From: Patescibacteria group bacterium
GTDB lineage: Bacteria > Patescibacteriota > Microgenomatia > UBA8517
Direction of reading: 5' to 3'
DNA length: 64,000 bases
Assembly: GCA_041742135.1 (NCBI GenBank)
Contig: JBGSJG010000001.1
Coordinates: forward strand, 3,151-67,150
Part shown: in pieces, positions 1-36,112 of the stretch
Layout: each line of letters opens with the position of its first letter
Position numbering within the stretch: the stretch's first letter is position 1
Made by a program: the position numbers and the translations under genes
Notes under the pieces: model-generated
What the model saw: only the letters and a program-made list of their open reading frames with translations
What the model was told of the DNA's origin: nothing
Database searches by the model: none

Positions 1-92
1 AATATGTGATTATTTAAGTTTGAACACAATTATTCCAAGTAATAACAATATATCCTCTGGAATTCTCTATGAATTAGCAAAATCTGTAAAAA

Positions 93-905
93 ATGGATAG
101 AAAAATTATTGTAATTACCGGCGTAAGTTCAGGAATTGGAATGGCTTTTGTAAAAAAGGCTCTTAATTCTGGTGAATTTACTGTGATTGGATTAGGTAGA
201 AAAGACAATAAAGAGGTTAACGATCCAAATTATTTTTTCTATAAAGTTGATTTATTAGATGAGAGAACAATTAAGGTCGCTGTGGACAAAGTAATAAAGA
301 AATTTAAAAGGGTTAATGTTCTGATTAACAACGCTGGCTTTGCATATAGAAGCACATTCGAGGATCTGTCTTCTAAAGAAATGAGGGAACAATTTGAAGT
401 AAACCTTTTTGGCCCAGCAGTATTGGTTAATCTTATATTGTCTATTATGAGAAAACAGAATACAGGACATATTATAAATGTTAGCTCTGTTGCCTCAAGT
501 GTGAATACTCCAACTTTAGGATATTATGCTGCCACAAAAGTTGCATTAGATAAGCTAAGTGAGGTTCTAAGACAGGAAGTTAAAGCTTTTGGCATATCTG
601 TGAGTCTTCTAATCCCTGGTGCTGTTAAAACTAACTTTGGGAAGAACATTAAATTACCAAAAAACTATAAAAAGTCATCTTATAATAATTTATATTCCGA
701 ATGGGAAAATAGATTCCGTAATTTTTTCAATATAAGAAATACATCTGATGACGTTGCAGAAGGAATACTCTCCCTTATTAATAAACCGCAGAATATTAAA
801 TATATAAATAATCGTGATTGGGTTATGTGCACTCTGGAAAAATATCTACCAAGACAACTATTTCATTATTTATTTTTAAATTATTTTTACAGAAATGAAG
901 GCTAA
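93..905 (+). CDS. short-chain dehydrogenase/reductase (SDR) family oxidoreductase
   Basis: Rossmann motif ITGVSSGIGMA near N-terminus, NNAG motif, catalytic YAATK (YxxxK) in translation. Confidence 0.8.
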   Translation: MDRKIIVITGVSSGIGMAFVKKALNSGEFTVIGLGRKDNKEVNDPNYFFYKVDLLDERTIKVAVDKVIKKFKRVNVLINNAGFAYRSTFEDLSSKEMREQFEVNLFGPAVLVNLILSIMRKQNTGHIINVSSVASSVNTPTLGYYAATKVALDKLSEVLRQEVKAFGISVSLLIPGAVKTNFGKNIKLPKNYKKSSYNNLYSEWENRFRNFFNIRNTSDDVAEGILSLINKPQNIKYINNRDWVMCTLEKYLPRQLFHYLFLNYFYRNEG

Positions 906-1470
906 AAAATTTGGGTTTTTCTTTACAGTTAAATATATCGACAAAAACATCGAGGCCTATCGAGAAGTGTTAAAAGCTACAGATAAGCTTGGTGCTCAAA
1001 TGTATAATTCAAAACTTATTGAAGACTATCCAAAGTCAGTAAGCAAATTAAAAAACGATGGTAAATCTTTGGTTGATGGTACACAAAGGCTACTGCGTTC
1101 TGTAGATTTCGTAATTTCCTTTTTCAGCGACAAATCACGCATTGTCTTTTTGCAAACAATAATGGCGCTAGAGAACAAGACGCCAGCATTGTGTTTAGTC
1201 CATGAAAGTGCGTATAACAACTTTCCAGAAACTCTGCTTTCTTACGGCAAAGACTATGTAAAAGTTAGGAAATATAGTTCGACAAATCAGCTTCAGGAAA
1301 TTGTTACTGAATATATTGAAGATCTTGAACCCCCCAAACGAAGATTCAATGTTGTACTAAAAACAAAGACTTTAAAGCAACTTGAACAGCTAACCCGTGA
1401 GCTTGACATGACTAAGGCAGAACTATTAAGACGACTGATAGATAAAGAATACAGGAGGATGTTTGATTGA
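895..1470 (+). CDS. hypothetical protein; N-terminal nucleoside 2-deoxyribosyltransferase-like (Rossmann-like) region, C-terminal ribbon-helix-helix-like tail
   Basis: Pattern VDFVISFF..., ALENKTPALCLVHES resembles NDT/Rcl-like nucleoside-binding fold; C-terminal KTLKQLEQLTRELDMTKAELLRRLI is RHH-like; 11-nt overlap with upstream SDR gene. Confidence 0.35.
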   Translation: MKAKKFGFFFTVKYIDKNIEAYREVLKATDKLGAQMYNSKLIEDYPKSVSKLKNDGKSLVDGTQRLLRSVDFVISFFSDKSRIVFLQTIMALENKTPALCLVHESAYNNFPETLLSYGKDYVKVRKYSSTNQLQEIVTEYIEDLEPPKRRFNVVLKTKTLKQLEQLTRELDMTKAELLRRLIDKEYRRMFD

Positions 1471-1979
1471 TGAAAAAAAATGATGGTCAAAACCAAGTTC
1501 AGTTAGTTAAGGACTACGTCAGTAAGTGTCATAAAAAAGGTAAAACTGTTCTTATTGTCAAAGGTGTATTTGATCTTATCCACCCTGATCATATACAAAC
1601 ACTTGAGCGATTAAGCAAACTTGCCGATGAACTCATCGTCTTACTAATCCCTGATTGGGCTGCGTCACTCATAAAGCCTGGTAGACCTATCTTGCCAGAA
1701 TCTGCCCGACAAAAGGTTGTAAGTAACTTAAGACCTGTAAAAAAGTGTTTTATTGATTATGATTCACGAGATAGCAAAACGAATAAGTACTCTAAAGATA
1801 AAGATATCGAGCTGTTGAAACAAATTTCACCTGATATGTGGGCTTTAAGTGAAAACAACTTTTCCAAATTTGAAAAATATGATTTAGGTAAAATTGAGCT
1901 CATTAAGTATGAGGAAGGAGTGAATTATTCCACAACCAAAATTATTAGTAAGATTTTAGAAAAATATGCAAAAGCTTAA
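1467..1979 (+). CDS. cytidylyltransferase-like nucleotidyltransferase (RfaE domain II / glycerol-3-phosphate cytidylyltransferase family)
   Basis: HxGH motif in GVFDLIHPDH, downstream ESARQKVVSNLRPVKKC matching ERxxxLxxLxxVDxV pattern of CTP_transf_like family; 4-nt overlap with upstream gene. Confidence 0.6.
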   Translation: MMKKNDGQNQVQLVKDYVSKCHKKGKTVLIVKGVFDLIHPDHIQTLERLSKLADELIVLLIPDWAASLIKPGRPILPESARQKVVSNLRPVKKCFIDYDSRDSKTNKYSKDKDIELLKQISPDMWALSENNFSKFEKYDLGKIELIKYEEGVNYSTTKIISKILEKYAKA

Positions 1980-2817
1980 GAATTCCTTAATTTCCATTAT
2001 TATTCCTACTCACAACAGGGATTATATTTTGTGGAAAGCCATTCAAAGTATTCAGCAGCAAACTTACTCAAACTGGGAGTTGATAATAGTAGATGACAGA
2101 TCTACTGATGCAACCTACAAAATGATGCGTGAGTTCAAGCAAGACAAACGTATAAAATATATTCTTAATGAGTATAAACACAGTCCAGCCGGTGCCCGTA
2201 GATTTGGACAGAAAAATGCAAAAGGTGATCTGATTGCATACCTTGATAGCGATAACAGTGCTTCTAAATTGTGGTTACAAGAAATAGTCAATTTGTTTGA
2301 AAGCGATAGCAGTGCAGTTTTTGCGTATACCGCATTAAATTTTAAGGTTGATTATGTTGATAAGAATGAAAATATAGTAACACTGATTTCAGAAGTGAGA
2401 TTTGCGAACCCTCCTACAGTAGCCATGTTATGGTCTCATGAGTTTGAGGGAGATCCGAATGGTTTTGTTCACCGGTCTGATGTAGACAAAGCAATTGTCT
2501 GGGATGAAAAACTGGATTTGTATGAAGATTATGATTTTTCACTTCAACTTGCCAAGAAATACCCCAAGGGTATGCGATACATAAATCAAGCATTGGTGAA
2601 TTATGTCAGGAGATATGGTGAAGCAGGTATTTGCAACGATGCTACTTATAAATCTCTGTTGAAAAACCTTAAATACCTTAACAGAAAACACAGTAACCTC
2701 CCTCAATGGAACAAAAGTGACTGGCACAAAGAGGAAATAAGAAAGTTCAAAGAATTAGCTGACCAAGGACTAAAACCTATAGATAGGATATTGGCTAAGT
2801 ATGGAAACAAAAATTAA
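1966..2817 (+). CDS. family 2 glycosyltransferase
   Basis: Canonical GT2 N-terminus ISIIIPTHNRDYILWKAIQSIQQQTYSNWELIIVDDRSTD. Confidence 0.8.
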   Translation: MQKLKNSLISIIIPTHNRDYILWKAIQSIQQQTYSNWELIIVDDRSTDATYKMMREFKQDKRIKYILNEYKHSPAGARRFGQKNAKGDLIAYLDSDNSASKLWLQEIVNLFESDSSAVFAYTALNFKVDYVDKNENIVTLISEVRFANPPTVAMLWSHEFEGDPNGFVHRSDVDKAIVWDEKLDLYEDYDFSLQLAKKYPKGMRYINQALVNYVRRYGEAGICNDATYKSLLKNLKYLNRKHSNLPQWNKSDWHKEEIRKFKELADQGLKPIDRILAKYGNKN

Positions 2818-3682
2818 AAAGGCACTTCTCTATAATCCCAGCATTGGAATTGACGTCAAAAATATTACAGTCACTTCTCTACTTGGAGGAAAAGAATCCA
2901 GTATCTATAAAGTCACGAATCAAAATGACAAATGTGTTGTTGTAAAAATTCCAAAAACTGATTGGCAAAAGAGAGAGATCCATGTTTTTCGAGATTATTT
3001 AAGTAAACTTGATATCAGTACTCCAAGATTTTTAGGTGAGTACAATAACGAAGTTTTGATTATAGAGTTCTTAGAGGATTGCAAAACTTTAAACAAGCTG
3101 TCTTTGAGTGAACTAAAGCTTCTGAGAGAGTGGATTATTAATAAACATAGTAAGTCGTGCAAATTATTCACAAATGAATCAAGGAGTTTATTAAAACATG
3201 CTGAATGGATGGTGAATCATCCTATCAAGCAAATCTTAAGTAATAAAAGTATAGAATCTGATGTTAAAGGGAAGTTGTTAGAGTTGCAACCCAATTTACT
3301 TAAGGCATTAGACAAAATTGATCTGCCAATGGTGCTCGATCACTCTGATCTGGAAATCCAGAACTTACTTTTTGACACTAAGAAAGAGGATGTTTGTGTT
3401 TTAGATTGGGCAAATGCAATTAAGTCACCAGGTTTTTATGATATTGCACAATTTAGAAAATTAGCAAGACAATATGTTTCAAATGATGCCGATAGTTTAG
3501 TGTCCGAGCTAATGAAAGAAGTCGGACTCGCAGATAATAATGATCTATTGGAGACATTTGCACTTATAAAAGAAATCAATCTATTAAGTTATTATTTAAA
3601 AGAAAGAGGTGTAGAAAAAGATAATAAAAGTGAAATTGACTATGCGCGTAATATAATTACAGAATATGAAGAACAAAATTAA
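2801..3682 (+). CDS. phosphotransferase enzyme family (APH/choline-kinase fold) small-molecule kinase
   Basis: Brenner motif region VLDHSDLEIQNLLFD and downstream VLDWANA (D of DFG-like) typical of aminoglycoside-phosphotransferase fold kinases. Confidence 0.6.
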   Translation: METKIKKALLYNPSIGIDVKNITVTSLLGGKESSIYKVTNQNDKCVVVKIPKTDWQKREIHVFRDYLSKLDISTPRFLGEYNNEVLIIEFLEDCKTLNKLSLSELKLLREWIINKHSKSCKLFTNESRSLLKHAEWMVNHPIKQILSNKSIESDVKGKLLELQPNLLKALDKIDLPMVLDHSDLEIQNLLFDTKKEDVCVLDWANAIKSPGFYDIAQFRKLARQYVSNDADSLVSELMKEVGLADNNDLLETFALIKEINLLSYYLKERGVEKDNKSEIDYARNIITEYEEQN

Positions 3683-4121
3683 AGTTAGACTACGACTAAT
3701 AATTATCAAGGAAGAAAAGTTGTTGGCATATTATGATTCGATGGATGATTATTATTTCTACATTGGCGGTAAGCTTGAGTTTGGAGAAACCATTGAAGAT
3801 GGATGGAAAAGAGAAATTCAAGAAGAATTGGGCGACGATGTTGAATTCAAATTCAAGAAGATCTTATACATTAGAGATTTTATCCTCCCAGAGAAAAATG
3901 AACACAGCCTTGAGCTATTTATTTTAGGAGACATTAACAAGTTTATGGAGATAGATGAAAGACCAGATCCAGAATATGATGGCAAAAAGTGGCCAAAATG
4001 GTTGAATCTTAATAATTTGCCAGACAACCTCTACCCTAAGCCCTTAACTAAAAAGATCGTACAGGATTATAAAAATGGATTTCCAAACAGCGGAGAGTAT
4101 GTTGGCAGAATGGATAGTTAA
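3666..4121 (+). CDS. NUDIX hydrolase
   Basis: Nudix box GGKLEFGETIEDGWKREIQEELG (GX5EX7REUXEEXGU). Confidence 0.75.
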   Translation: MKNKIKVRLRLIIIKEEKLLAYYDSMDDYYFYIGGKLEFGETIEDGWKREIQEELGDDVEFKFKKILYIRDFILPEKNEHSLELFILGDINKFMEIDERPDPEYDGKKWPKWLNLNNLPDNLYPKPLTKKIVQDYKNGFPNSGEYVGRMDS

Positions 4122-4125
4122 GTAT

Positions 4126-5061
4126 CTATAAAGAAGCGAGTGTATTAACCACAGAGTTTAAAATAAGCTTGTCTCTGTTTAACTTTCCATTAGTAAAGTG
4201 TTGATAAGGGTCTTTTGTTTTTATTCCAAACTTCTTCTGAACTAACACTCCTAAGTCTGGGTATTCAGATGGAACTAAATCAGTCAGTGCTTTAGGTATT
4301 TCCAGATCAGTATCAATTGTAATTGACCTTTCCTGCTTCTCATTTTCTATTACACAAACGCTAAGACCAAAAGTGTTGTGTTTTTCATGCAAGATCGCAT
4401 TCCCGCTTTCAATAGAGACCAAAAACTTTGCTTTCTTATTTTTTATTTTCTTCTTCAAGTCTTCTAACCTGTTTATCGCACCTTGGTATGTTTCCTCGAT
4501 TGAATAAGGCTGCTCTGATATACCAGAGTCGGTTTTTACACCTACTACATTGCATCTATGTCCAAATTCTCGCAGCGCAAGAGAAGTGGCTGAAGTCTTT
4601 ATTATATTCTCAGAGCTAATATATACATTTGGCAAGCTTTTGTAGTAATCTGTGATTGCGTCAATTTTATTGTTTATTACAATTGGTTGCATAGCATTTA
4701 TTTCAGAATCGTAGCTAATTTCAGGAGCTGGGTTGAGCAAAAATATATCTCTGTTTAGTGTGAAGGCAAATCCCATCTCCATTAAACTATTTCCTCCAAT
4801 GTAGTTTTTAATTTCATTCTTATCGTAATTGAGAACCAAAATCCCTTCACTTTGTTTTATAAAATCATAATGTTTGCGGATGTAGTTATTTTCAACCTTC
4901 CTTTTGACAGCTTCTTTTGAAGATCCAGCCTCTTTATATCCTTGTAGTTCATTTGCACTTCCAGGCACATACACATTGAAGCCTTTTTCGGTAAGTCTAT
5001 CCTTCCACTCAAGCATCTCTTTGTGGAATTTCATGCTTCCACAGATTGTTATATTTATCAT
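4126..5061 (-). CDS. fusion protein: N-terminal nucleoside 2-deoxyribosyltransferase-like domain + C-terminal YjjX-type inosine/xanthosine triphosphatase-like domain
   Basis: N-term ICGSMKF...GILVLNY...GGNSLMEMGFAFTLNRDIFLL (NDT/DUF4406-like); C-term GISEQPYSIEETYQGAINR resembles YjjX GVPEQPFGSEETRxGAxNR. ORF-track start 5157 trimmed to internal Met (MINITICG) to avoid overlap with divergent CYTH gene. Confidence 0.45.
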   Translation of the reverse strand: MINITICGSMKFHKEMLEWKDRLTEKGFNVYVPGSANELQGYKEAGSSKEAVKRKVENNYIRKHYDFIKQSEGILVLNYDKNEIKNYIGGNSLMEMGFAFTLNRDIFLLNPAPEISYDSEINAMQPIVINNKIDAITDYYKSLPNVYISSENIIKTSATSLALREFGHRCNVVGVKTDSGISEQPYSIEETYQGAINRLEDLKKKIKNKKAKFLVSIESGNAILHEKHNTFGLSVCVIENEKQERSITIDTDLEIPKALTDLVPSEYPDLGVLVQKKFGIKTKDPYQHFTNGKLNRDKLILNSVVNTLASL

Positions 5062-5112
5062 CTCAAATATTCTAACATAGGCCGGGGGTTGCAGGGTGAT
5101 ATAATCAGATTT

Positions 5113-5691
5113 ATGTACACAGAATTTGAGGCAACTTTTACAAAAATTAATAAGCAAGAAATAAGAGAAAAGCTGAAAGCGATTGGCGCCAAACTAGAGC
5201 GGAAAGAATTTCTTCAAAAGAGAGTTGTCTTTAACCTTCCAAATGGTCATGAAATTGATGGTGGCTGGCTACGAGTTCGAGATGAGGGAGATAAAATTAC
5301 CATGAGTTTAAAGGTTGTTAAAGAAGGCAAAATAGAGGATCAAAAAGAAATCCAGCTTAATATAGATAGTTTTGATAATGCTGTATCACTTTTAGAAACA
5401 ATAGGTTGCGAAAACAAAGCATATCAAGAGACTAAGCGCGAGCTTTGGAAAATCGACGATATAGAAGTAACTATTGATGAATGGCCTTTCTTGGAACCAT
5501 TTGTGGAAATTGAGGGAAAGTCAGAGGCAGAAGTAAAATCTGTTTCTGAAAAACTGGATTTTGATTATTCACTAGCAAAGTTTTGTGCAGTGGATACGCT
5601 CTATGCAGAAAAATATGGTATTACAGAGGATAGAATAAACAATAACACTCCTAAAATTTTGTTTGGAGGGGCAAATCCTTTTACTGATTAA
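5113..5691 (+). CDS. CYTH-domain protein (class IV adenylate cyclase / triphosphatase fold)
   Basis: N-terminal EFEATFTKINKQEIREKL (ExExK-type CYTH motif) and overall 190-aa size; ORF-track start 5023 trimmed to Met at 5113. Confidence 0.55.
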   Translation: MYTEFEATFTKINKQEIREKLKAIGAKLERKEFLQKRVVFNLPNGHEIDGGWLRVRDEGDKITMSLKVVKEGKIEDQKEIQLNIDSFDNAVSLLETIGCENKAYQETKRELWKIDDIEVTIDEWPFLEPFVEIEGKSEAEVKSVSEKLDFDYSLAKFCAVDTLYAEKYGITEDRINNNTPKILFGGANPFTD

Positions 5692-6250
5692 GATACTCAG
5701 CCAATTTCTCCCAATAGCTTTCTACTTGTGCCCAATATTTAACCATGTCTTCTCTTGAAATTTCTGACTCCACTTTTCCATTATATCCATCTGGAATAAA
5801 CAATTCATTAATAGGTGTGTTTCCTTCTTTGTCTGTTTTTACTGCTTTTTTAGATATGATTCCTGTAACTTGGCTTGGGAAAGTGAGAGGTTCTTTGTTT
5901 GGTTCACAATATGCTAAACAACCTTTAATAGTTACACTTCTATCTGTTTTGCCTTCCATTAGTTTCAAGATGTCTTCAGAAGTGAGCCATTGGTTAATAT
6001 ATTTGATAAAAGGTCCTGGGAATCCATTTAGTGCATTGATGTACCAACCTGCATCAGTAAGGGCAACAGGTTTGCCTAATTTTTCAGCTGCAAATTTGGC
6101 AGAGTAGGAAGCAATTTTTTCTACATCAGTTGATTGAATTTCAGGAGTTTCAATTTTTTGTTGAATTAACTCAACATTAGAATTCTCAAGTACTTTCTGA
6201 GCAATTTCAAACTTATATTTATTTCCTGTTACAAAGATTATTTGTTTCAT
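5681..6250 (-). CDS. Ham1/RdgB-family non-canonical purine NTP pyrophosphatase (ITPase)
   Basis: IIFVTGNKYKFEIAQ N-terminus and TDAGWYINALNGFPGPFIKY core typical of Ham1/ITPA. Confidence 0.7.
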   Translation of the reverse strand: MKQIIFVTGNKYKFEIAQKVLENSNVELIQQKIETPEIQSTDVEKIASYSAKFAAEKLGKPVALTDAGWYINALNGFPGPFIKYINQWLTSEDILKLMEGKTDRSVTIKGCLAYCEPNKEPLTFPSQVTGIISKKAVKTDKEGNTPINELFIPDGYNGKVESEISREDMVKYWAQVESYWEKLAEYLNQ

Positions 6251-6253
6251 AGT

Positions 6254-6553
6254 TTACTTATTAGATTTTACTATTTTTTTAGTTACTTCACCCGCAAATA
6301 ATCTATATGCTGGACGTTTTTCTTTTGGGTACAGATAATATACTCCTAGTGTATCTTTACAATTCGGACAAATTAAATTCTTGTCAGATTGTTTTTCAAA
6401 ATCGACTATTCTGTCTAAATAAATTCGTTTTAAAATGCCTGGGCCATCTTTTTGATAATAAAAAAGATGAGTAGTACAAGACTCACAAGAAATATCATAA
6501 ACTTTTGAAGTTCCTCCTCTGGTTCTCCTAAATTTATCTTTTTTAATTTTCAT
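6254..6553 (-). CDS. small zinc-ribbon protein (CxxC...CxxC), hypothetical
   Basis: CESC...CPNC pair in 99-aa basic protein. Confidence 0.4.
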   Translation of the reverse strand: MKIKKDKFRRTRGGTSKVYDISCESCTTHLFYYQKDGPGILKRIYLDRIVDFEKQSDKNLICPNCKDTLGVYYLYPKEKRPAYRLFAGEVTKKIVKSNK

Positions 6554-6893
6554 TTATTTCAACCTTTATTCCCAGAACTCCATATTTTTCTTCATCTTCT
6601 TCAGAATAGTATTTTCTCATATCGTCGGACATTTTTTCTGGAGTATCGTCTTCGCTCCAACCAGCGTCGTTGCCTTTTATTTTTGAGAACATCTCAACAA
6701 AGTTTTTGAACTGATTTAAGTCAACGATTTTAGTATGAATACGTTCGTTTGTTTCTGTATTTGTAAAAACAATATTGTCTTCAACTTTCAACTTCTGTCG
6801 TTTTTCATCAAACAACCTGATTTCTATTGTTTTTTTGCCAGATTTAATTTTGTTAAATGGCTCTGGTCGCAAGCTCATTTGATGAGTGTTCAT
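6543..6893 (-). CDS. ASCH (PUA-like) domain protein
   Basis: MSLRPEPFNKIKSGKKTIEIR N-terminal pattern typical of ASCH domain. Confidence 0.5.
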   Translation of the reverse strand: MNTHQMSLRPEPFNKIKSGKKTIEIRLFDEKRQKLKVEDNIVFTNTETNERIHTKIVDLNQFKNFVEMFSKIKGNDAGWSEDDTPEKMSDDMRKYYSEEDEEKYGVLGIKVEINEN

Positions 6894-7552
6894 AGTGAGG
6901 AAATTATATCATCCAGTAAGTTTAATGTGGCTGAAGTTCGAGTTGACAAATCACCAGCTAAGGCATCTTTCCAAAGGCTTTCAAAACTTTCTGGTAGTTC
7001 CTCTAAATCATTAATTCTTCTAAAAGCAGTCGTACTTGGTGGTAATGGTTTATTGTTTGATAAATACAAGCCTCTAACTATTTGCCATAAAACATTTGAA
7101 ACATTGAAACCGATGGCTAAGTCATCGTCGTTTTGTTGAGCCGATTCGATTTTTATCTTTGCACTCTTTAGCCACTTTTTAACTCCAGTTATTTCTTTCG
7201 GATCTGGCTTGTAATTATCATAAATATCTTTAGCTTCATTAATTGCTTTTTCGGCAAAGTTGTCTTTATCAAATATCACTTTTGCATCTAGCCACTGGTA
7301 AACGTTCATTGGGTCGTCATGCATTTTTCGAATAAAACCATCTGACGTGTTTGTTTTGATCTCTACAACTATTCCTTCAATTAATTCTTCTTTAAAAGGT
7401 TGTTTTTCATTTGCAATAAGAAGCAAGTCTAAGTCTGAATTTTCAGATTGTTCATCTCTTGCAACACTACCCGTAACTAACAATGTAAGATTATTTTCAT
7501 TACTTCGATAAGTTGAAGCCAGTCTTTCAATTATCTGTTTGTGCTTAGACAT
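6890..7552 (-). CDS. Pol-beta superfamily nucleotidyltransferase (kanamycin/ANT(4')-like fold)
   Basis: LVTGSVARDEQSENSDLDLLLIANE = GS...D.D nucleotidyltransferase motif; 220 aa with helical C-terminal half. Confidence 0.6.
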   Translation of the reverse strand: MSKHKQIIERLASTYRSNENNLTLLVTGSVARDEQSENSDLDLLLIANEKQPFKEELIEGIVVEIKTNTSDGFIRKMHDDPMNVYQWLDAKVIFDKDNFAEKAINEAKDIYDNYKPDPKEITGVKKWLKSAKIKIESAQQNDDDLAIGFNVSNVLWQIVRGLYLSNNKPLPPSTTAFRRINDLEELPESFESLWKDALAGDLSTRTSATLNLLDDIISSL

Positions 7553-7554
7553 AG

Positions 7555-8523
7555 TTGAATTATATAATAAACCTCATGAAAATAATTCTAGGATCAAATA
7601 ACCATGACAAAGTTGAAATAATTAAGAAAGCATTAGAGCAACTACATTTGGAAATTGAGGTTGAAGGCGTGAAAGTTGCTTCTGAAATAACAGACCAACC
7701 TCTGGATAAAGAAACTACTTTAAAAGGTTCTCAAAACAGAGCTAGAAACGCTAGAAAGGCAAAACCAAATGCAGAATTCTACTTTGGCTTAGAAGGTGGG
7801 CTTCACGATTACGGAGAAGGATATCATCTTGTAACATTTGCTACTTTAATCGACAAAAGTGGTAATGAATATACTGGTGAAGGTGTAGAAATCCATCTCC
7901 CAGAAAAAGTTTCAGCGGAAGTTAAAAATGGTGGTTGGTTTGGAGAAGTAATTAGAATTTATGCAAAAGAGTATGACATTGATGAGAACTTAATTACAAG
8001 AGAAACTCCATTTATTGAAGCGATAGAAAGAGCATATGCAAATTACTTAAAAGCCAACGATAAACTTGCAGTCAGAAAAAAATCTATAGCTTTTATTTTT
8101 AATGAGGATAAAGAATTCTTACTAGTCCAACTTCAAACATACGGTCCAGACCATTGGAACATGCCTGGTGGTGGAATAGATGAAGGAGAAGATGCACAAA
8201 CTGCAATGAAAAGAGAATTGAAAGAAGAACTTGGCACAGACAAATTTGAAGTAATTGAAGAATCCAAGATTAAGAATCAATATGATTGGCCAGATTTTGT
8301 AATTGCGGACAGAATTGTTAGGAAAAATGAATATTTTAGCGGGCAGGAACAAACACAATTTATTGTTAAATTTACTGGCGTTAAAGATGAGATTAAAATT
8401 CAAGAAGAAGAAATAAAACAACACAAGTGGGTGAAATATGACGATCTAGAACAATACTTAATATTTCCTGACCAATGGGATAATTTCAAAGTTGTGGTTG
8501 AAACTTCATCATTTGAGCTATGA
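7555..8523 (+). CDS. fusion protein: N-terminal YjjX-type ITPase/XTPase (DUF84) + C-terminal NUDIX hydrolase
   Basis: N-term ILGSNNHDKVEI...ITDQPLDKETTLKGSQNRARNARK matches YjjX NPxK...GAxNRxxNA pattern; C-term Nudix box GGGIDEGEDAQTAMKRELKEELG. Confidence 0.6.
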   Translation: MNYIINLMKIILGSNNHDKVEIIKKALEQLHLEIEVEGVKVASEITDQPLDKETTLKGSQNRARNARKAKPNAEFYFGLEGGLHDYGEGYHLVTFATLIDKSGNEYTGEGVEIHLPEKVSAEVKNGGWFGEVIRIYAKEYDIDENLITRETPFIEAIERAYANYLKANDKLAVRKKSIAFIFNEDKEFLLVQLQTYGPDHWNMPGGGIDEGEDAQTAMKRELKEELGTDKFEVIEESKIKNQYDWPDFVIADRIVRKNEYFSGQEQTQFIVKFTGVKDEIKIQEEEIKQHKWVKYDDLEQYLIFPDQWDNFKVVVETSSFEL

Positions 8524-9014
8524 AATATCCCGTATCAACATTCTCATGGCAAGGCACAGATGTTACTAATACTTGGATAAAGACCACTGAGGTTGAAAAT
8601 TATTCTCCTATCACCCAAGCATACGCAGTTATTTTTAATGATAAAAATGAGATATTAATAGGTAGAGAGAAAGGTAAAGGCAAATGGTGTTTGCCAGGTG
8701 GTCATCCTGAAGATGGTGAGAGTTTAGTTGAAACTTTGTGTCGAGAAGTAGATGAGGAAGTTGATGTTGAAATTGATAATGTTAAGCCACTGGGAGTAAT
8801 TAAAGTAGAATTTGAAGATGCACCAAATAAACCTATTTATCAATCAAGATTTATAGCTAAACTGAAAAAACTGCTTCCTCAGACTCCTGATCCAGCAAAT
8901 AACAATATTTGGGAAAGAAAATTTGTTCCGGCAAAAGACATCAATGAATATGTTAAATGGGGTGAAACGGGGAAAGCAATGTTTAAAGATGCTATTGAAT
9001 TATCCGGACACTAA
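8520..9014 (+). CDS. NUDIX hydrolase
   Basis: Nudix box LPGGHPEDGESLVETLCREVDEEVDV. Confidence 0.75.
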   Translation: MKYPVSTFSWQGTDVTNTWIKTTEVENYSPITQAYAVIFNDKNEILIGREKGKGKWCLPGGHPEDGESLVETLCREVDEEVDVEIDNVKPLGVIKVEFEDAPNKPIYQSRFIAKLKKLLPQTPDPANNNIWERKFVPAKDINEYVKWGETGKAMFKDAIELSGH

Positions 9015-9107
9015 GGCAGCGGTGAGAATGTTTTGAAAAAAAACAACAAAATAGCCAACCTTCATGGGCTATTCTAGAGACCACGGTCTTGCCGCTAGAA
9101 TCTCAGC

Positions 9108-9176
9108 TGCGGGACAGGGACTCGAACCCCGATACCATCCTCCAGAGGGATGTGTCCTACCATTAGACGATCCCGC
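9108..9176 (-). tRNA. tRNA-Gln (anticodon CUG)
   Basis: Reverse complement GCGGGAT-CG-TCTAATGGTAGGA-CACATCC-CTCTGGA-GGATG...GGTTCGAGTCCCTGTCCCGCA folds as cloverleaf; anticodon loop CTCTGGA gives CUG; no encoded CCA. Confidence 0.85.
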
Positions 9177-9230
9177 AATATTAGATCGGCTAACTGGCAA
9201 GCTGTGCTTACCATTAGACGATCCCGCAAT
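9158..9230. repeat. direct repeat: ~22-bp copy of the tRNA-Gln 5' end (taccattagacgatcccgcaat) duplicated 51 bp away
   Basis: Identical 22-mer at 9158-9179 (inside tRNA) and 9209-9230; second copy does not continue into a tRNA. Confidence 0.7.
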
Positions 9231-9326
9231 GTGAGGCAATTTTATCACAATCGCAACCCCATTCAGGAATCACCTGGCAAAATAGAGCTTCAAATAGCCT
9301 AGCTTGCGGCATTCTCACCCCTATCG

Positions 9327-9533
9327 CTAAGATGCTTTTAGCAATTCAGGTTTATCTCCCTGACCATCAGCTGGTTGAGTTCTCTCGACCAGTGGCTGTT
9401 CAACCTGCACTCGACTAGGATACGAAGGCTCTCTCCTTCCACGGTAATTACTCATCCCAGGCAAGGTTATGTGCATAGTGTAAAGCAGCCTTTCGCTCAC
9501 GTCTTGAAAATACGACCCTCTTTCAACACTCAT
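9327..9533 (-). CDS. hypothetical 68-aa sORF within GC-rich non-coding stretch (may be non-coding)
   Basis: ATG preceded by AAAGGGGGTGAG Shine-Dalgarno-like run immediately after a terminator; no recognisable family. Confidence 0.2.
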   Translation of the reverse strand: MSVERGSYFQDVSERLLYTMHITLPGMSNYRGRREPSYPSRVQVEQPLVERTQPADGQGDKPELLKAS

Positions 9534-9553
9534 TCATCTCACCCCCTTTCCAT

Positions 9554-9577
9554 AAAAAAAGAGCCCTTTTGGGGCTC
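9554..9577 (-). terminator. rho-independent terminator (minus strand) downstream of DUF4258 gene
   Basis: Minus-strand GAGCCCCAAAAGGGCTC hairpin followed by TTTTTTT (plus strand shows aaaaaaa-gagccc-tttt-ggggctc). Confidence 0.6.
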
Positions 9578-9670
9578 AATACCTTATGTCTTATAAACCT
9601 ACAATCAGGTGGTGAAATTACAATCTTGAACCAGTTTATACCTGAAGGCGCCAAACAGCTGTAACGGCCG

Positions 9671-27642: not shown

Positions 27643-27660
27643 TAAAAATTTTTTTGTACT

Positions 27661-27992
27661 CTGGAGGACTATAAGCCAGGTTCTGTACTCTCGCCTAAGG
27701 CGAGGCCGTAATCATCTGTCTAAGCCCTAACTTCGGAGCGGGATTCGATTCTTCGAATCGTCGAGAAAGCAATCTTCTGAAGCTTTCGCTTCACCGTTCC
27801 ATTCGTAGGTTGCAGCGGGGAGGATTGCCCGTTTCACCCTTCTGCCAGCTTTAGGCTGACACAAGACTCGTCTCTGTTGCTCTAACTAGCGGTTACCCGT
27901 TTCCGGTTTTAACCGGAACACCCTTGCTTTCTGCTGCCTGGACTTTCCTCTCGCCTAAGGCGAGCGATTACACATCCTCCAGAGTGAGTATA
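27661..27992 (-). ncRNA. rnpB: RNase P RNA, bacterial type A
   Basis: Minus-strand read shows GAGAGGAAAGTCCAGGC (P4 5' strand), AAGGGTGAAACGGG, ACAGAACCTGGCTTA (P4 3' strand) and P1 pairing CTGGAGGA...TCCTCCAG; no ORF. Confidence 0.9.
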
Positions 27993-33465: not shown

Positions 33466-34554
33466 TTATTCTTCTTCACTCTCTTCCCCCAACTCCTTGG
33501 GAACCTCTTTACCTGAAGATAACGCTTTGCGAATTTCATCTTCAATTTCGTGAGCTAATTTGGGGTTTTCGCGTAAATAAATCTTGGCGGCTTCACGGCC
33601 TTGCGCAATTGTTTTATCTTTGTAACTAAAGAACGCGCCCTTCTTTTGTAAAATATCCATTTCACTAGCAACATCAATAATTCCGCCGACTTTACTTATG
33701 CCTTCATCGTTCATAATGTCAAACTCGGCAACACGAAGAGGTGGTGCTACTTTGTTTTTCACGATGCGTGCACGGTGGCGACTACCGATAACATTATCGC
33801 CATCTTTAAGTGTTTCGATGCGGCGAATATCAATTCGAACAGATGTGTAAAACTTAAGAGCCAAGCCGCCGGGGGTTGTCTCGGGGTTACCAAACATGAC
33901 TCCAATTTTCTGGCGGATTTGATTGGTAAAAATAAGAATAGTTTTTGATTTGGAAATTGCACCCGTGAGCTTTCGCAAAGCCTGGCTCATAAGGCGCGCC
34001 TGCATTCCCATAACCGCGTCGCCCATCTCGCCTTCCAGCTCGGCTCTCGGAACCAAAGCCGCAACTGAGTCGACCACTATCACGTCTAAAGCTCCAGAGC
34101 GGATCAAGGTCTCCGTAATTTCCAAAGCCTGCTCTCCACTATCTGGCTGGGAAAGCAAAAGGTCATCCAAATTAACGCCAATTGCTTCCGCACGTGTTGG
34201 GTCAAGAGCGTGCTCAGCATCAACAAACGCACACTGGCCACCTTTCTTTTGTGCTTCTGCGATTACATGAAGCGCTAAAGTGGTTTTACCAGAAGCTTCA
34301 GGACCGTAAATTTCAATGATTCGGCCACGAGGAAGCCCACCAACTCCAAGTGCCAAATCAAGCGCGATTGAGCCTGTGGGGATAGTATCGATGTGGCGAT
34401 CTGCGGCGGACTTTTCTCCAAGGCGCATTATGGATCCCGCACCATACTGCTTTTCAATCTGCTCCATAGCTAGTTTAATAGCCTGAAGTCGCGGGGATCC
34501 TGAATCCTCCTGGGTTACTACTTCCAAAGTTACGTCTTTTTTATGTCTTGCCAT
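33466..34554 (-). CDS. recA: recombinase RecA
   Basis: Walker [28 protein letters not shown]-terminal region, L2 loop. Confidence 0.95.
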
Positions 34555-34595
34555 CTCTAAAAAAAGTTATAACACCGATAGTATACAATTACAAG

Positions 34596-35090
34596 ATGGT
34601 GAAATATGATTTTTGCCCCAAATGCGGAAAGTCTGTCGACCAAAAAGACGGTGTCGTAAAATGCCCAAATTGCCATCACGCAATTTATCTTCATTCGGCA
34701 ATCACAGGTTCTGTGTTTGTAATTAATGACAAAAAAGTAATGCTGTCTAAAAGAAAATTTGATCCATACAAAGGAGCATGGGATGTGCCGGGAGGGTTTC
34801 TCAAATTTGGCGAGGACCCAGAGGTGGGTGCAATGCGCGAACTTTATGAAGAAACAGGGGTCGATGTAAAAATTACTAAACTTCTTGGAGTTTACATGGA
34901 CAAATATCCATTTCAAGACGAAGTTATTCCAACTTTAAACTGCATCTTCATTGGCACGATTGGAAACCAAACACCCGAGCCTGCGGATGATGTAGAAGAA
35001 ATCAAATGGTTTGATTTAGATAAGCCACTTCCCAAAATCCCATTCCCTGCAATTTCTAAGGCCTTGGAGGACCTTGCTAGAATTAAATAA
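34596..35090 (+). CDS. NUDIX hydrolase with N-terminal zinc ribbon (NudC-like architecture)
   Basis: CPKCGK...CPNCHH zinc ribbon then Nudix box GGFLKFGEDPEVGAMRELYEETGVDV; ORF-track TTG start 34548 trimmed to first ATG. Confidence 0.7.
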   Translation: MVKYDFCPKCGKSVDQKDGVVKCPNCHHAIYLHSAITGSVFVINDKKVMLSKRKFDPYKGAWDVPGGFLKFGEDPEVGAMRELYEETGVDVKITKLLGVYMDKYPFQDEVIPTLNCIFIGTIGNQTPEPADDVEEIKWFDLDKPLPKIPFPAISKALEDLARIK

Positions 35091-35968: not shown

Positions 35969-36050
35969 GTCAGGGTAAGCAAAGCTTGGCCCACTACATT
36001 TCGTGTCGGGGTAAGCAAAGCTTGGCCCACTACACTTCGTGTCGGGGTAG
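35969..36050. repeat. tandem 36-bp direct repeats (2 full copies + partial) each beginning with the 3' acceptor end of tRNA-Pro
   Basis: Copy A 35969-36004 gtcagggtaagcaaagcttggcccactacatttcgt; copy B 36005-36040 gtcggggtaagcaaagcttggcccactacacttcgt; third partial copy gtcggggta is the tRNA 3' end. Confidence 0.8.
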
Positions 36051-36112
36051 GAGGAATTGAACCTCCGCCGCACGGCCCCCAGCCGCGCATTCTGCCGTTA
36101 AACTATACCCCG
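36042..36112 (-). tRNA. tRNA-Pro (anticodon GGG)
   Basis: Reverse complement CGGGGTA-TA-GTTTAACGGCAGAAT-G-CGCGG-CTGGGGG-CCGTG-CGGC-GGAGGTTCAATTCCTCC-TACCCCG-A cloverleaf. Confidence 0.8.

Follow-up and report, generated by a model that had tools for sequence, protein, structure and literature searches.

House-cleaning enzymes, among them YjjX, ITPases, Nudix and MazG proteins, remove non-canonical nucleoside triphosphates (NTPs), and modified RNA bases re-enter the nucleotide pool through RNA degradation (PMC3899018). DNPH1, an N-glycosidase of the nucleoside 2-deoxyribosyltransferase (NDT) family, sanitises the nucleotide pool with a catalytic Glu that belongs to a Y24/D80/E104 triad (PMC10603095). 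It cleaves deoxynucleoside monophosphates such as hm-dUMP to base and deoxyribose 5-phosphate, the Glu being the nucleophile (PMC10603095, PMC10483697). MilB is an NDT-fold N-glycosidase of hmCMP (PMC4081090). Bacteria of the Candidate Phyla Radiation (CPR) are often without nucleotide synthesis and use the nucleotide salvage pathway (PMC7304191). The CPR, or Patescibacteria, hold a large share of bacterial diversity and depend on scavenged nucleotides, and the cleaning and recycling of the pool are largely unstudied there. The stretch analysed here, called the window, is 64,000 nucleotides of a Patescibacteria group bacterium (assembly GCA_041742135.1, contig JBGSJG010000001.1, positions 3,151 to 67,150 of the forward strand). 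At window positions 3666-9014, about ten genes of nucleotide-hydrolysing type, two of them fusions, lie in one AT-rich patch adjoining a tRNA-Gln gene.

In this cluster, known house-cleaning families, all of them common in CPR genomes, have accumulated beside envelope-glycan genes in a lineage-specific manner. It is neither one operon nor one conserved system but comprises at least five compact transcription units on alternating strands. Its genes probably, on balance, encode enzymes that sanitise and recycle scavenged nucleotides and have accreted in a low-GC variable region, and do not form one dedicated pathway. Since the dense cluster is apparently a local accumulation and no new system, its value lies mainly in targets for enzymology. 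The worthwhile lead is an NDT-fold domain that is wired to YjjX, MazG and Nudix.

Domain content and clustering

Open reading frames (ORFs) of 3666-9014 were translated and scanned with Pfam against the gathering cut-offs. A preliminary description, made from the sequence alone, had listed a dense cluster of named domains here, and each of them was reproduced. The Pfam matches for these domains exceeded the cut-offs, except for Nuc_deoxyrib_tr on the NDT-like domain and the zinc-ribbon matches, which were sub-threshold. The two fusion architectures of that description, i.e., NDT-YjjX and YjjX-Nudix, were right and were confirmed by Pfam and by structure prediction with AlphaFold. They had been called novel, which as sequences they are not. 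The YjjX-Nudix query returned 79 homolog clusters across Patescibacteria, which with few exceptions show this pair of Pfam domains and are about 315 aa long, and the NDT-YjjX query returned 204 (approximately 300-318 aa).

When hidden Markov models (HMMs) built from homolog alignments were run on the remaining 58 kb of the window, no additional copy of YjjX, the NDT-like domain, Ham1 or CYTH came up. The only extra Nudix was a fourth gene in the normal-GC chromosome, outside the low-GC stretch (Table 1). Six of the seven such genes fall within 8% of the window (P ~2e-6; ~2e-5 after position correction), so the clustering is real. The proposed redundancy of ITPases was not borne out. Identity between the two YjjX domains is 32% over 75 residues, and the similarity among the three Nudix proteins is confined to the surroundings of the Nudix box; these paralogs are not recent duplicates. 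The Ham1 protein is divergent and of archaeal type, and the fused Nudix is RppH/Ap4A-like, not MutT-like. The source contig at NCBI has 204,561 nt. The tiny genome that had been assumed agrees with a related complete Woesebacteria genome of 901,682 bp; the source organism is a Woesebacteria-like (Patescibacteria/CPR) bacterium.

The YjjX domains and the fusion families

The two YjjX domains scored 80.6 and 99.9 bits with Pfam PF01931 against a cut-off of 25. Both show the YjjX fold, align end to end with YjjX of Escherichia coli and VC0702 of Vibrio cholerae, and keep the motifs K, (E/D)QP, GAxNR and E(S/G)G. However, they are only 21-29% identical to these two proteins, and both have a second catalytic domain as fusion partner. 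Their NCBIfam scores were below the equivalog cut-offs, with 65 bits for one (cut-off 117) and 84 bits for the other (cut-off 199). Both may be phosphatases specific for inosine/xanthosine triphosphate (ITP/XTP). A YjjX domain also gave a weak match to NF002250, the subfamily of bifunctional pantetheine-phosphate adenylyltransferase/NTP phosphatases; DUF84 fusions as such are thus not new.

The AlphaFold model of the YjjX-Nudix protein had a pLDDT of 92.9 and a pTM of 0.83. In the Foldseek search, its N-half corresponded to VC0702/YjjX (TM ~0.8), and its C-half to lupin Ap4A hydrolase (31% identity) and E. coli RppH. The Nudix half scored 71.1 bits with Pfam NUDIX (cut-off 21.1), and its box, GGIDEGE-x7-RELKEELG, is intact. 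Its best NCBIfam models were RNA pyrophosphohydrolases, with 85 bits against the RppH cut-off of 116. In structure it is nearest to the RppH/Ap4A-hydrolase branch of Nudix proteins, but it differs from that branch in its score below the RppH cut-off and in its fusion to YjjX. In a relative, the protein P0008 (488 aa) joins three domains in one chain, i.e., YjjX, Nudix and the nucleotidyltransferase (NTase)-fold domain GrpB. This triple fusion links YjjX-Nudix to an NTase-fold partner, like the divergent pair in the window.

The named sources of both fusion families are Candidatus Woesebacteria, Saccharibacteria, Dojkabacteria and "Patescibacteria group", and the public labels are "DUF84 family protein", "inosine/xanthosine triphosphatase" and "RNA pyrophosphohydrolase". 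In the literature on DUF84 with Nudix and on house-cleaning in Patescibacteria, no paper describing either architecture was found. Both fusions are conserved and widespread but undescribed protein families of Patescibacteria, already present in public databases.

The NDT-like domain

The AlphaFold model of the NDT-YjjX protein, made like that of YjjX-Nudix from alignments of 20-21 sequences, had a pLDDT of 89.3 and a pTM of 0.84, and its N-domain shows the NDT fold. The Pfam PF05014 score of this domain was 17.1 bits against a cut-off of 28.8. The precomputed Pfam annotation of the family lists PF01931 only, so the N-domain is unannotated in public data. In the source genome, the public gene call P0080 (302 aa) starts 9 codons late and loses the conserved first beta-strand, ITICGSM, whereas the 311-aa form is backed by homologs. 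Public annotation is corrected by these results, as the N-domain of "DUF84 family proteins" was missed and was shortened by the gene call.

Exhaustive searching with the 140-residue domain gave 993 representatives, 523 of them at E<=1e-10, and more than 560 metagenome stretches carry it. Most representatives are stand-alone proteins of approximately 135-145 aa. Among the longer proteins, its fusion partners are YjjX (P0321 and the NDT-YjjX family) and, independently, MazG (P0310, and P0241 with the order NDT-NDT-MazG). Stand-alone genes adjoin Nudix genes at five loci (L057, L058, L095, L112, and L114) and CYTH genes at two (L069 and L116). YjjX, MazG and Nudix are unrelated in fold but share one task, the hydrolysis of mostly non-canonical NTPs (PMC3899018). 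That the NDT-like domain is repeatedly coupled to all three argues that this domain acts on their product.

A glutamate, E95, is invariant both in 21 fused sequences and in a mixed set of 19 fused and stand-alone sequences. By the AlphaFold model and the alignments, it belongs to a Gly-rich motif where a helix begins. Further invariant polar residues are S9, N78, Y87, and E120. The domain differs from DNPH1 and MilB in being fused to an NTP phosphatase, i.e., YjjX or MazG, an arrangement that was not found described for either enzyme.

Additional architectures of the NDT-like domain were seen in P0296 (628 aa), P0382 and P0239/P0242, and at the loci L060, L065, L073, L078, and L093. In these, the domain forms the C-terminal part of a class II aminoacyl-tRNA synthetase (Asp/Lys/Asn type) or is joined to DUF7768, and tandem duplicates of it are very frequent. 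The NDT-like genes L069:2741-3157 and L116:10001-10417 have one in-frame stop each, and the adjoining CYTH genes are intact. Either these two are pseudogenes, or the stop codon may be reassigned in the lineages that carry them.

Conservation in relatives

Relatives were collected as 127 loci from exact-protein look-ups and degenerate-pattern scans, and tblastn was run with all island proteins. The full cluster was found only in L001, a 4.5-kb Logan contig (run SRR28170474) of the same organism that is identical to window positions 5032-9585. In other genomes, the whole cluster was present at none of the ten adequately flanked YjjX-Nudix loci and at none of ten NDT-YjjX loci. The ten YjjX-Nudix loci have housekeeping surroundings, e.g., glutamyl-tRNA synthetase (GluRS), YchF, S6, SSB, peptidases and RF.

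One or two related neighbours were found at four of the ten YjjX-Nudix loci. In L013, a Ham1 gene (72% identity) and a truncated remnant of Nudix1 lie 1.5 kb from YjjX-Nudix, with an unrelated methyltransferase and racemase between them, and in L015 a CYTH gene (72%) and a Nudix gene lie 3 kb away. In L016, GrpB (NTase-fold) and a Nudix are divergent to YjjX-Nudix, and in L125 Nudix3 is directly downstream and an NTase is 7.5 kb off. Three of the ten NDT-YjjX loci have a related neighbour (L011, L046, and L049). The L011 locus has CYTH immediately upstream of NDT-YjjX, directly after ribonucleotide reductase, and CTP synthase is near the fusion gene in both L011 and L009. NTase homologs stand divergent beside Nudix3 homologs in L127 (51%) and L128 (55%), and beside a Nudix3 fragment in L125. 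The spacer of the L128 pair is 23 nt, equal to that between NTase and YjjX-Nudix in the window. Nudix1 homologs adjoin Ham1 or Nudix2 in L013, L025, and L031. No homolog of the ASCH or zinc-ribbon protein was found in the 127 fetched loci other than L001.

Three sub-modules are therefore recurrent, i.e., NTase with Nudix3 (with or without YjjX-Nudix), the NDT domain with CYTH, and Ham1 with Nudix1. In a packed run of the window from 7552 to 5681, i.e., NTase, ASCH, zinc-ribbon and Ham1, neighbouring genes overlap by 4 and 11 nt or are 3 nt apart. With such tight packing these four genes are probably co-transcribed here, and none of the other fetched loci showed this arrangement. A DUF5674 gene, which is absent from the window, adjoins YjjX-Nudix in L016 (11470-11811) and the pair of Nudix3 and NTase in L127 (9139-9489).

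Other proteins of the cluster

The Ham1/ITPase-family protein has its nearest solved relatives in archaea, i.e., Mj0226 of M. jannaschii (E 4e-25) and PH1917 of P. horikoshii. It stayed below every NCBIfam equivalog cut-off, the NF011396 score being 139 against 203 bits. Like Mj0226, it keeps the N-terminal TGNxxK, PEIQ, D(A/S)G and GFPG motifs. Unlike PH1917, it reads NTPINE at the GFGYDP stretch, and its C-terminal helix differs. Both differences are kept in the homologs of L013 and L025. The C-terminal motifs of this type read the base in ITPA and RdgB structures, and with these conserved differences the base specificity of the window protein may be another one.

The CYTH protein, a triphosphate tunnel metalloenzyme (TTM), is nearest to the solved Saci_0718 TTM (profile E 9e-7). 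The residues E4 and E6 and the tunnel Arg, Glu and Asp are invariant.

ASCH proteins include YqfB, an amidohydrolase of N4-acetylcytidine, in which the Lys21-Thr24-Glu74 triad and Arg26 are essential (PMC6972931). The window protein has about the same size as YqfB, the ASCH fold, and K21 and R26 at matching positions within its motif G19-K-K21-T-I-E24-I-R26. However, it has Glu24 where YqfB has the nucleophile Thr24; the motif is thus the canonical ASCH motif and not of the YqfB type. The nearest solved structures are the uncharacterised archaeal proteins PH0355 and PF0455. A role in the recycling of modified nucleosides would suit the neighbourhood. Over its full length the protein is also similar to the phage family phrog_19935 ("RNA-binding protein"; E 1e-21), and no other gene of the cluster has a specific phage relative.

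The NTase, of Pol-beta/KNTase type, has the motif hG[GS]x9-13Dh[DE]h, i.e., TGSVARDEQSENSDLDLLLI (GS-x10-DLD), and returned 39 homolog clusters. It is not an equivalog of ANT(4')-I (16 bits, cut-off 350), MntA (18 bits, cut-off 60) or HalB (29 bits, cut-off 190). Read against the consensus GX5EX7REUXEEXGU, the boxes of all three Nudix proteins were called intact, apart from an Asp at the final Gly position of Nudix3.

Composition and the tRNA-Gln boundary

GC content is 33.7+-1.4% from window position 1 to approximately 9030 and 43.0+-2.2% in the remainder, and the ranges of the 900-nt windows do not overlap. All 14 genes of the low-GC stretch have a GC content of 28-36% and a GC content at third codon positions of 15-37%. 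From approximately 35% up to position 9000, GC rises to approximately 48% in 9001-9500. The step lies after the Nudix3 stop codon (9014) and before the tRNA-Gln gene, whose 3' end is at 9106, i.e., within about 100 nt. The stretch accordingly has the deviant composition and the sharp tRNA boundary of a tRNA-associated island. An exact 22-nt duplicate of the tRNA-Gln 5' end, i.e., acceptor stem and D-arm (9157-9178), lies at 9209-9230, 30 nt upstream of the intact gene. This copy may be the scar of an earlier recombination or integration at tRNA-Gln.

To the left, the independent Logan contig L124 extends the low-GC stretch (~32% GC) by at least 1.86 kb beyond the window, to at least 10.9 kb in all. 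It adds a Ppx/GppA phosphatase gene directly upstream of window position 1 and a PRAI-like ORF, with which the theme of nucleotide and polyphosphate hydrolases reaches beyond the window.

In the Woesebacteria metagenome-assembled genome L016, the right side of YjjX-Nudix is syntenic with the window (orf118, orf321 at 63% identity, GluRS, and orf358). Different accessory genes stand to the left of and between the syntenic genes, and the GC step is milder. The YjjX-Nudix gene has a GC content of 35-38% in every genome examined, including L002, L003, and L005, whose genomes have 43-45% GC, and is there 6-9 points below its surroundings. This constant low GC points to an often exchanged gene within Woesebacteria or to some unusual constraint on composition. 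As a whole, the region fits best the description of an AT-rich, flexible accessory segment next to a tRNA gene, with YjjX-Nudix at or near its ancestral position and the other hydrolase genes collected around it.

Interpretation

In the reading of an accreted sanitation set, scavenged pools would hold deaminated, oxidised and RNA-modification-derived nucleotides, which the enzymes of the cluster would remove and recycle. A phosphohydrolase module (YjjX, Nudix or Ham1, and MazG in relatives) would strip a non-canonical NTP to the diphosphate or monophosphate. The fused NDT-fold domain, acting like DNPH1 or MilB, would then cut the N-glycosidic bond of the nucleoside monophosphate (NMP), giving the free base and (deoxy)ribose 5-phosphate for reuse. 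Coupling of a phosphohydrolase to a putative N-glycosidase suggests such a two-step breakdown, i.e., NTP to NMP to base and sugar phosphate. CYTH and the upstream Ppx/GppA could deal with the tri- and polyphosphate products. YjjX-Nudix would most likely handle dinucleoside polyphosphates or 5'-triphosphate ends, as the likeness of its Nudix half to RppH/Ap4A hydrolase proposes, together with the released NTP. With approximately 1,000 representatives and its repeated wiring to YjjX, MazG and Nudix, the NDT-fold domain would imply that this route is conserved and is a bacterial counterpart of human DNPH1, which is a testable idea.

Several points weigh against this picture. E. coli YjjX yields the diphosphate and not the monophosphate that a DNPH1-like enzyme needs. 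The NDT-like domain has no sequence similarity to any solved member of the hydrolase branch of the NDT fold (the 2'-deoxynucleoside 5'-phosphate N-hydrolase DNPH1/Rcl and the CMP/hmCMP N-glycosidases MilB/BlsM), and no relative in the PDB was found by sequence, even by profile search at E<=10. Of the Tyr/Asp/Glu triad of DNPH1, only the Glu is recognisable, and Tyr and Asp could not be placed. As the invariant polar residues are other than the triad, the domain could bind a nucleotide rather than cleave it. In CYTH, the EXEXK motif reads E4-F-E6-A-T8, with Thr for Lys in the window, L015, L116, and L069; the Lys is present in L011 and L033. No protein of the cluster reaches an NCBIfam equivalog cut-off. 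As regards the variable region, no integrase was found among the 16 genes of its visible part (window part and L124), and no repeat of the tRNA region of 12 nt or more was found in window 1-9000 or L124. The low GC of YjjX-Nudix in all genomes also means that composition alone is no proof of a recent import of every gene. In addition, Nudix1 overlaps the kinase gene by 17 nt as the last gene of the run 93-4121. It is translationally coupled to the run of kinase, cytidylyltransferase and family-2 glycosyltransferase (GT2) genes, and some members of the cluster may serve NDP-sugar or CDP-alcohol metabolism.

The last point leads to a view that is compatible with the sanitation reading for the other genes, i.e., that a part of the set (Nudix1, possibly NTase and Nudix3) serves the envelope-glycan genes by hydrolysing NDP-sugars or CDP-alcohols. 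Nudix genes within polysaccharide clusters are known to control precursor pools, e.g., the GDP-mannose hydrolase of E. coli. The position of Nudix1 speaks for it, at the end of a run of short-chain dehydrogenase (SDR), unknown protein, cytidylyltransferase-like protein, GT2 and kinase. So do the nearest solved structures of the cytidylyltransferase-like protein, i.e., a protein of lipopolysaccharide-core biosynthesis (3glv) and ethanolamine-phosphate and glycerol-3-phosphate cytidylyltransferases. In L126, an NTase homolog is followed by a family-4 glycosyltransferase, NDK, GT2, polysaccharide pyruvyl transferase and a Nudix, and GT2 genes stand left of YjjX-Nudix in L016 and L003. However, the Nudix1 homologs named above have Ham1 or Nudix2 beside them and not glycan genes, and the pair of NTase and Nudix3 occurs without glycosyltransferases in L127 and L128. 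A glycan role for some Nudix and NTase genes is plausible, though its probability is rated rather low. The preliminary description had proposed a dedicated pathway that makes or destroys one unusual nucleotide or nucleoside. This could be, for instance, a route resembling nucleoside-antibiotic synthesis, with an NDT-fold N-glycosidase that frees the base (as MilB and BlsM) and with the kinase, cytidylyltransferase, GT2 and SDR assembling a glycoconjugate, or the detoxification of a nucleotide-analogue toxin. A role in non-canonical nucleotides or nucleosides is reasonable, but a single pathway for one nucleotide is unsupported. That description had also named genes scattered singly in relatives as the outcome that would count against it; for the cluster as a whole this is largely what is seen, although the sub-modules of two or three genes recur. 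Only pairs recur, ASCH and zinc-ribbon never do, and both fusions behave as housekeeping-like conserved CPR genes in many unrelated contexts. With a cluster that is not conserved and at least five units on alternating strands, one dedicated pathway is disfavoured and judged unlikely. A bolder proposal centres on the fusion enzymes. NDT-YjjX and NDT-MazG would be undescribed single-chain "nucleotide demolition" enzymes that turn a specific non-canonical NTP into base and sugar phosphate. The surrounding Ham1, ASCH, zinc-ribbon, NTase, YjjX-Nudix, Nudix3 and CYTH would then be a lineage-dedicated module against one class of foreign or signalling nucleotide, e.g., host-derived modified nucleotides or dITP-type immune signals. 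This is possible, but the chances given to it are small.

The idea of an anti-phage defence or counter-defence island is very doubtful. Such an island would make or degrade signalling nucleotides (dITP as in Kongming, oligonucleotides as in Hailong) or deplete pools during infection. PADLOC gave only the generic matches PDC-S07 (Nudix) and PDC-S09 (minimal NTase), and none for six of the ten proteins. The HalB score (28.8 bits) is far from its cut-off, and Ham1 is far closer to the housekeeping archaeal NTPases than to KomB. No effector, e.g., SIR2, a nuclease or a pore protein, is present. Neither fusion was found on IMG/VR viral contigs, and elsewhere both stand among ribosomal, tRNA-synthetase and nucleotide-metabolism genes. 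A phage origin of the cluster was likewise rejected; besides the IMG/VR result, PHROGs gave only generic Nudix matches and one ASCH family. An artefact, i.e., a chimeric assembly of two organisms at approximately 9030 or over-read weak domain matches, deserves next to no credence. The GC jump of 9 points within about 100 nt and the origin of the contig from a metagenome-assembled genome might raise the suspicion. However, the independent Logan assembly of another run (L001) has 100% identity across the junction and the tRNA, and the position of YjjX-Nudix relative to orf118, orf321, GluRS and orf358 is the same in L016. The domain matches are above the Pfam cut-offs, and both fusions have high-confidence models.

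Neighbouring genes and feature list

Table 1. Features of the window and of the overlapping contig L124 (window positions unless marked L124).
Feature	Position	Strand	Basis or remark
Short-chain dehydrogenase	93-905	+	Pfam adh_short 146 bits; GC 31%; first complete low-GC gene in the window, starts the run 93-4121
Unknown protein	895-1470	+	Weak C-terminal RHH_1 (Pfam E 3.6e-3, below cut-off); phrog_876 "transcriptional repressor" E 2e-4
Cytidylyltransferase-like (HxGH-type) nucleotidyltransferase	1467-1979	+	Pfam CTP_transf_like 42.5 bits
Family-2 glycosyltransferase	1966-2817	+	Pfam Glycos_transf_2 112 bits
APH/choline-kinase-fold small-molecule kinase	2801-3682	+	Pfam APH 30.7 bits; Choline_kinase 27.2 bits
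Nudix1, 151 aa	3666-4121	+	Pfam NUDIX 26.4 bits (cut-off 21.1); box GKLEFGE-x7-REIQEELG
NDT-fold domain (aa 1-140) + YjjX/DUF84 NTP phosphatase domain (aa 141-311)	4126-5061	-	Pfam NTPase_I-T; sub-threshold Nuc_deoxyrib_tr
CYTH (triphosphate tunnel metalloenzyme)	5113-5691	+	Pfam PF01928 40.5 bits (cut-off 23.2); divergent from NDT-YjjX, 51-nt spacer
Ham1/ITPase-family protein, divergent	5681-6250	-	Pfam Ham1p_like (PF01725) 83.6 bits (cut-off 22.5); last gene of the run 7552 to 5681
Zinc-ribbon protein, 99 aa, no family	6254-6553	-	Two CxxC pairs; only sub-threshold zinc-ribbon matches
ASCH protein, 116 aa	6543-6893	-	Pfam ASCH 42.7 bits (cut-off 21.2)
Pol-beta/KNTase-type nucleotidyltransferase (NTase), 220 aa	6890-7552	-	Pfam NTP_transf_2 29.7 bits (cut-off 21); divergent from YjjX-Nudix, 23-nt spacer
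YjjX/DUF84 + RppH/Ap4A-hydrolase-like Nudix, 315 aa	7576-8523	+	Pfam NTPase_I-T and NUDIX
Nudix3, 164 aa	8520-9014	+	Pfam NUDIX 58.3 bits; box GHPEDGE-x7-REVDEEVD; 4-nt overlap with the end of YjjX-Nudix
tRNA-Gln(CUG)	9106-9177	-	ARAGORN; Rfam tRNA 57.4 bits; 3' end toward the low-GC stretch, right boundary
RNase P class A RNA, bacterial	27656-27983		111.9 bits
Fourth Nudix gene	34548-35090		Only extra Nudix found by HMMs; normal-GC chromosome
tRNA-Pro	36041-36112		Normal-GC part of the window
Ppx/GppA phosphatase	L124:1009-1956		Directly upstream of window position 1; low-GC
PRAI-like ORF	L124:3-1022		Upstream of the window; low-GC

The genes to the left of the cluster, i.e., SDR, unknown protein, cytidylyltransferase-like protein, GT2 and kinase, look like an envelope-decoration route (Table 1). 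The unknown protein is possibly a regulator. It was also considered as a second NDT-like domain, which was ruled out by an hhalign probability of 0.3% against the NDT-like domain.

Promoter and terminator scans gave counts equal to those of shuffled sequence and were hence uninformative. The normal-GC part of the window carries RNase P RNA and tRNA-Pro, which mark it as an ordinary bacterial chromosome.

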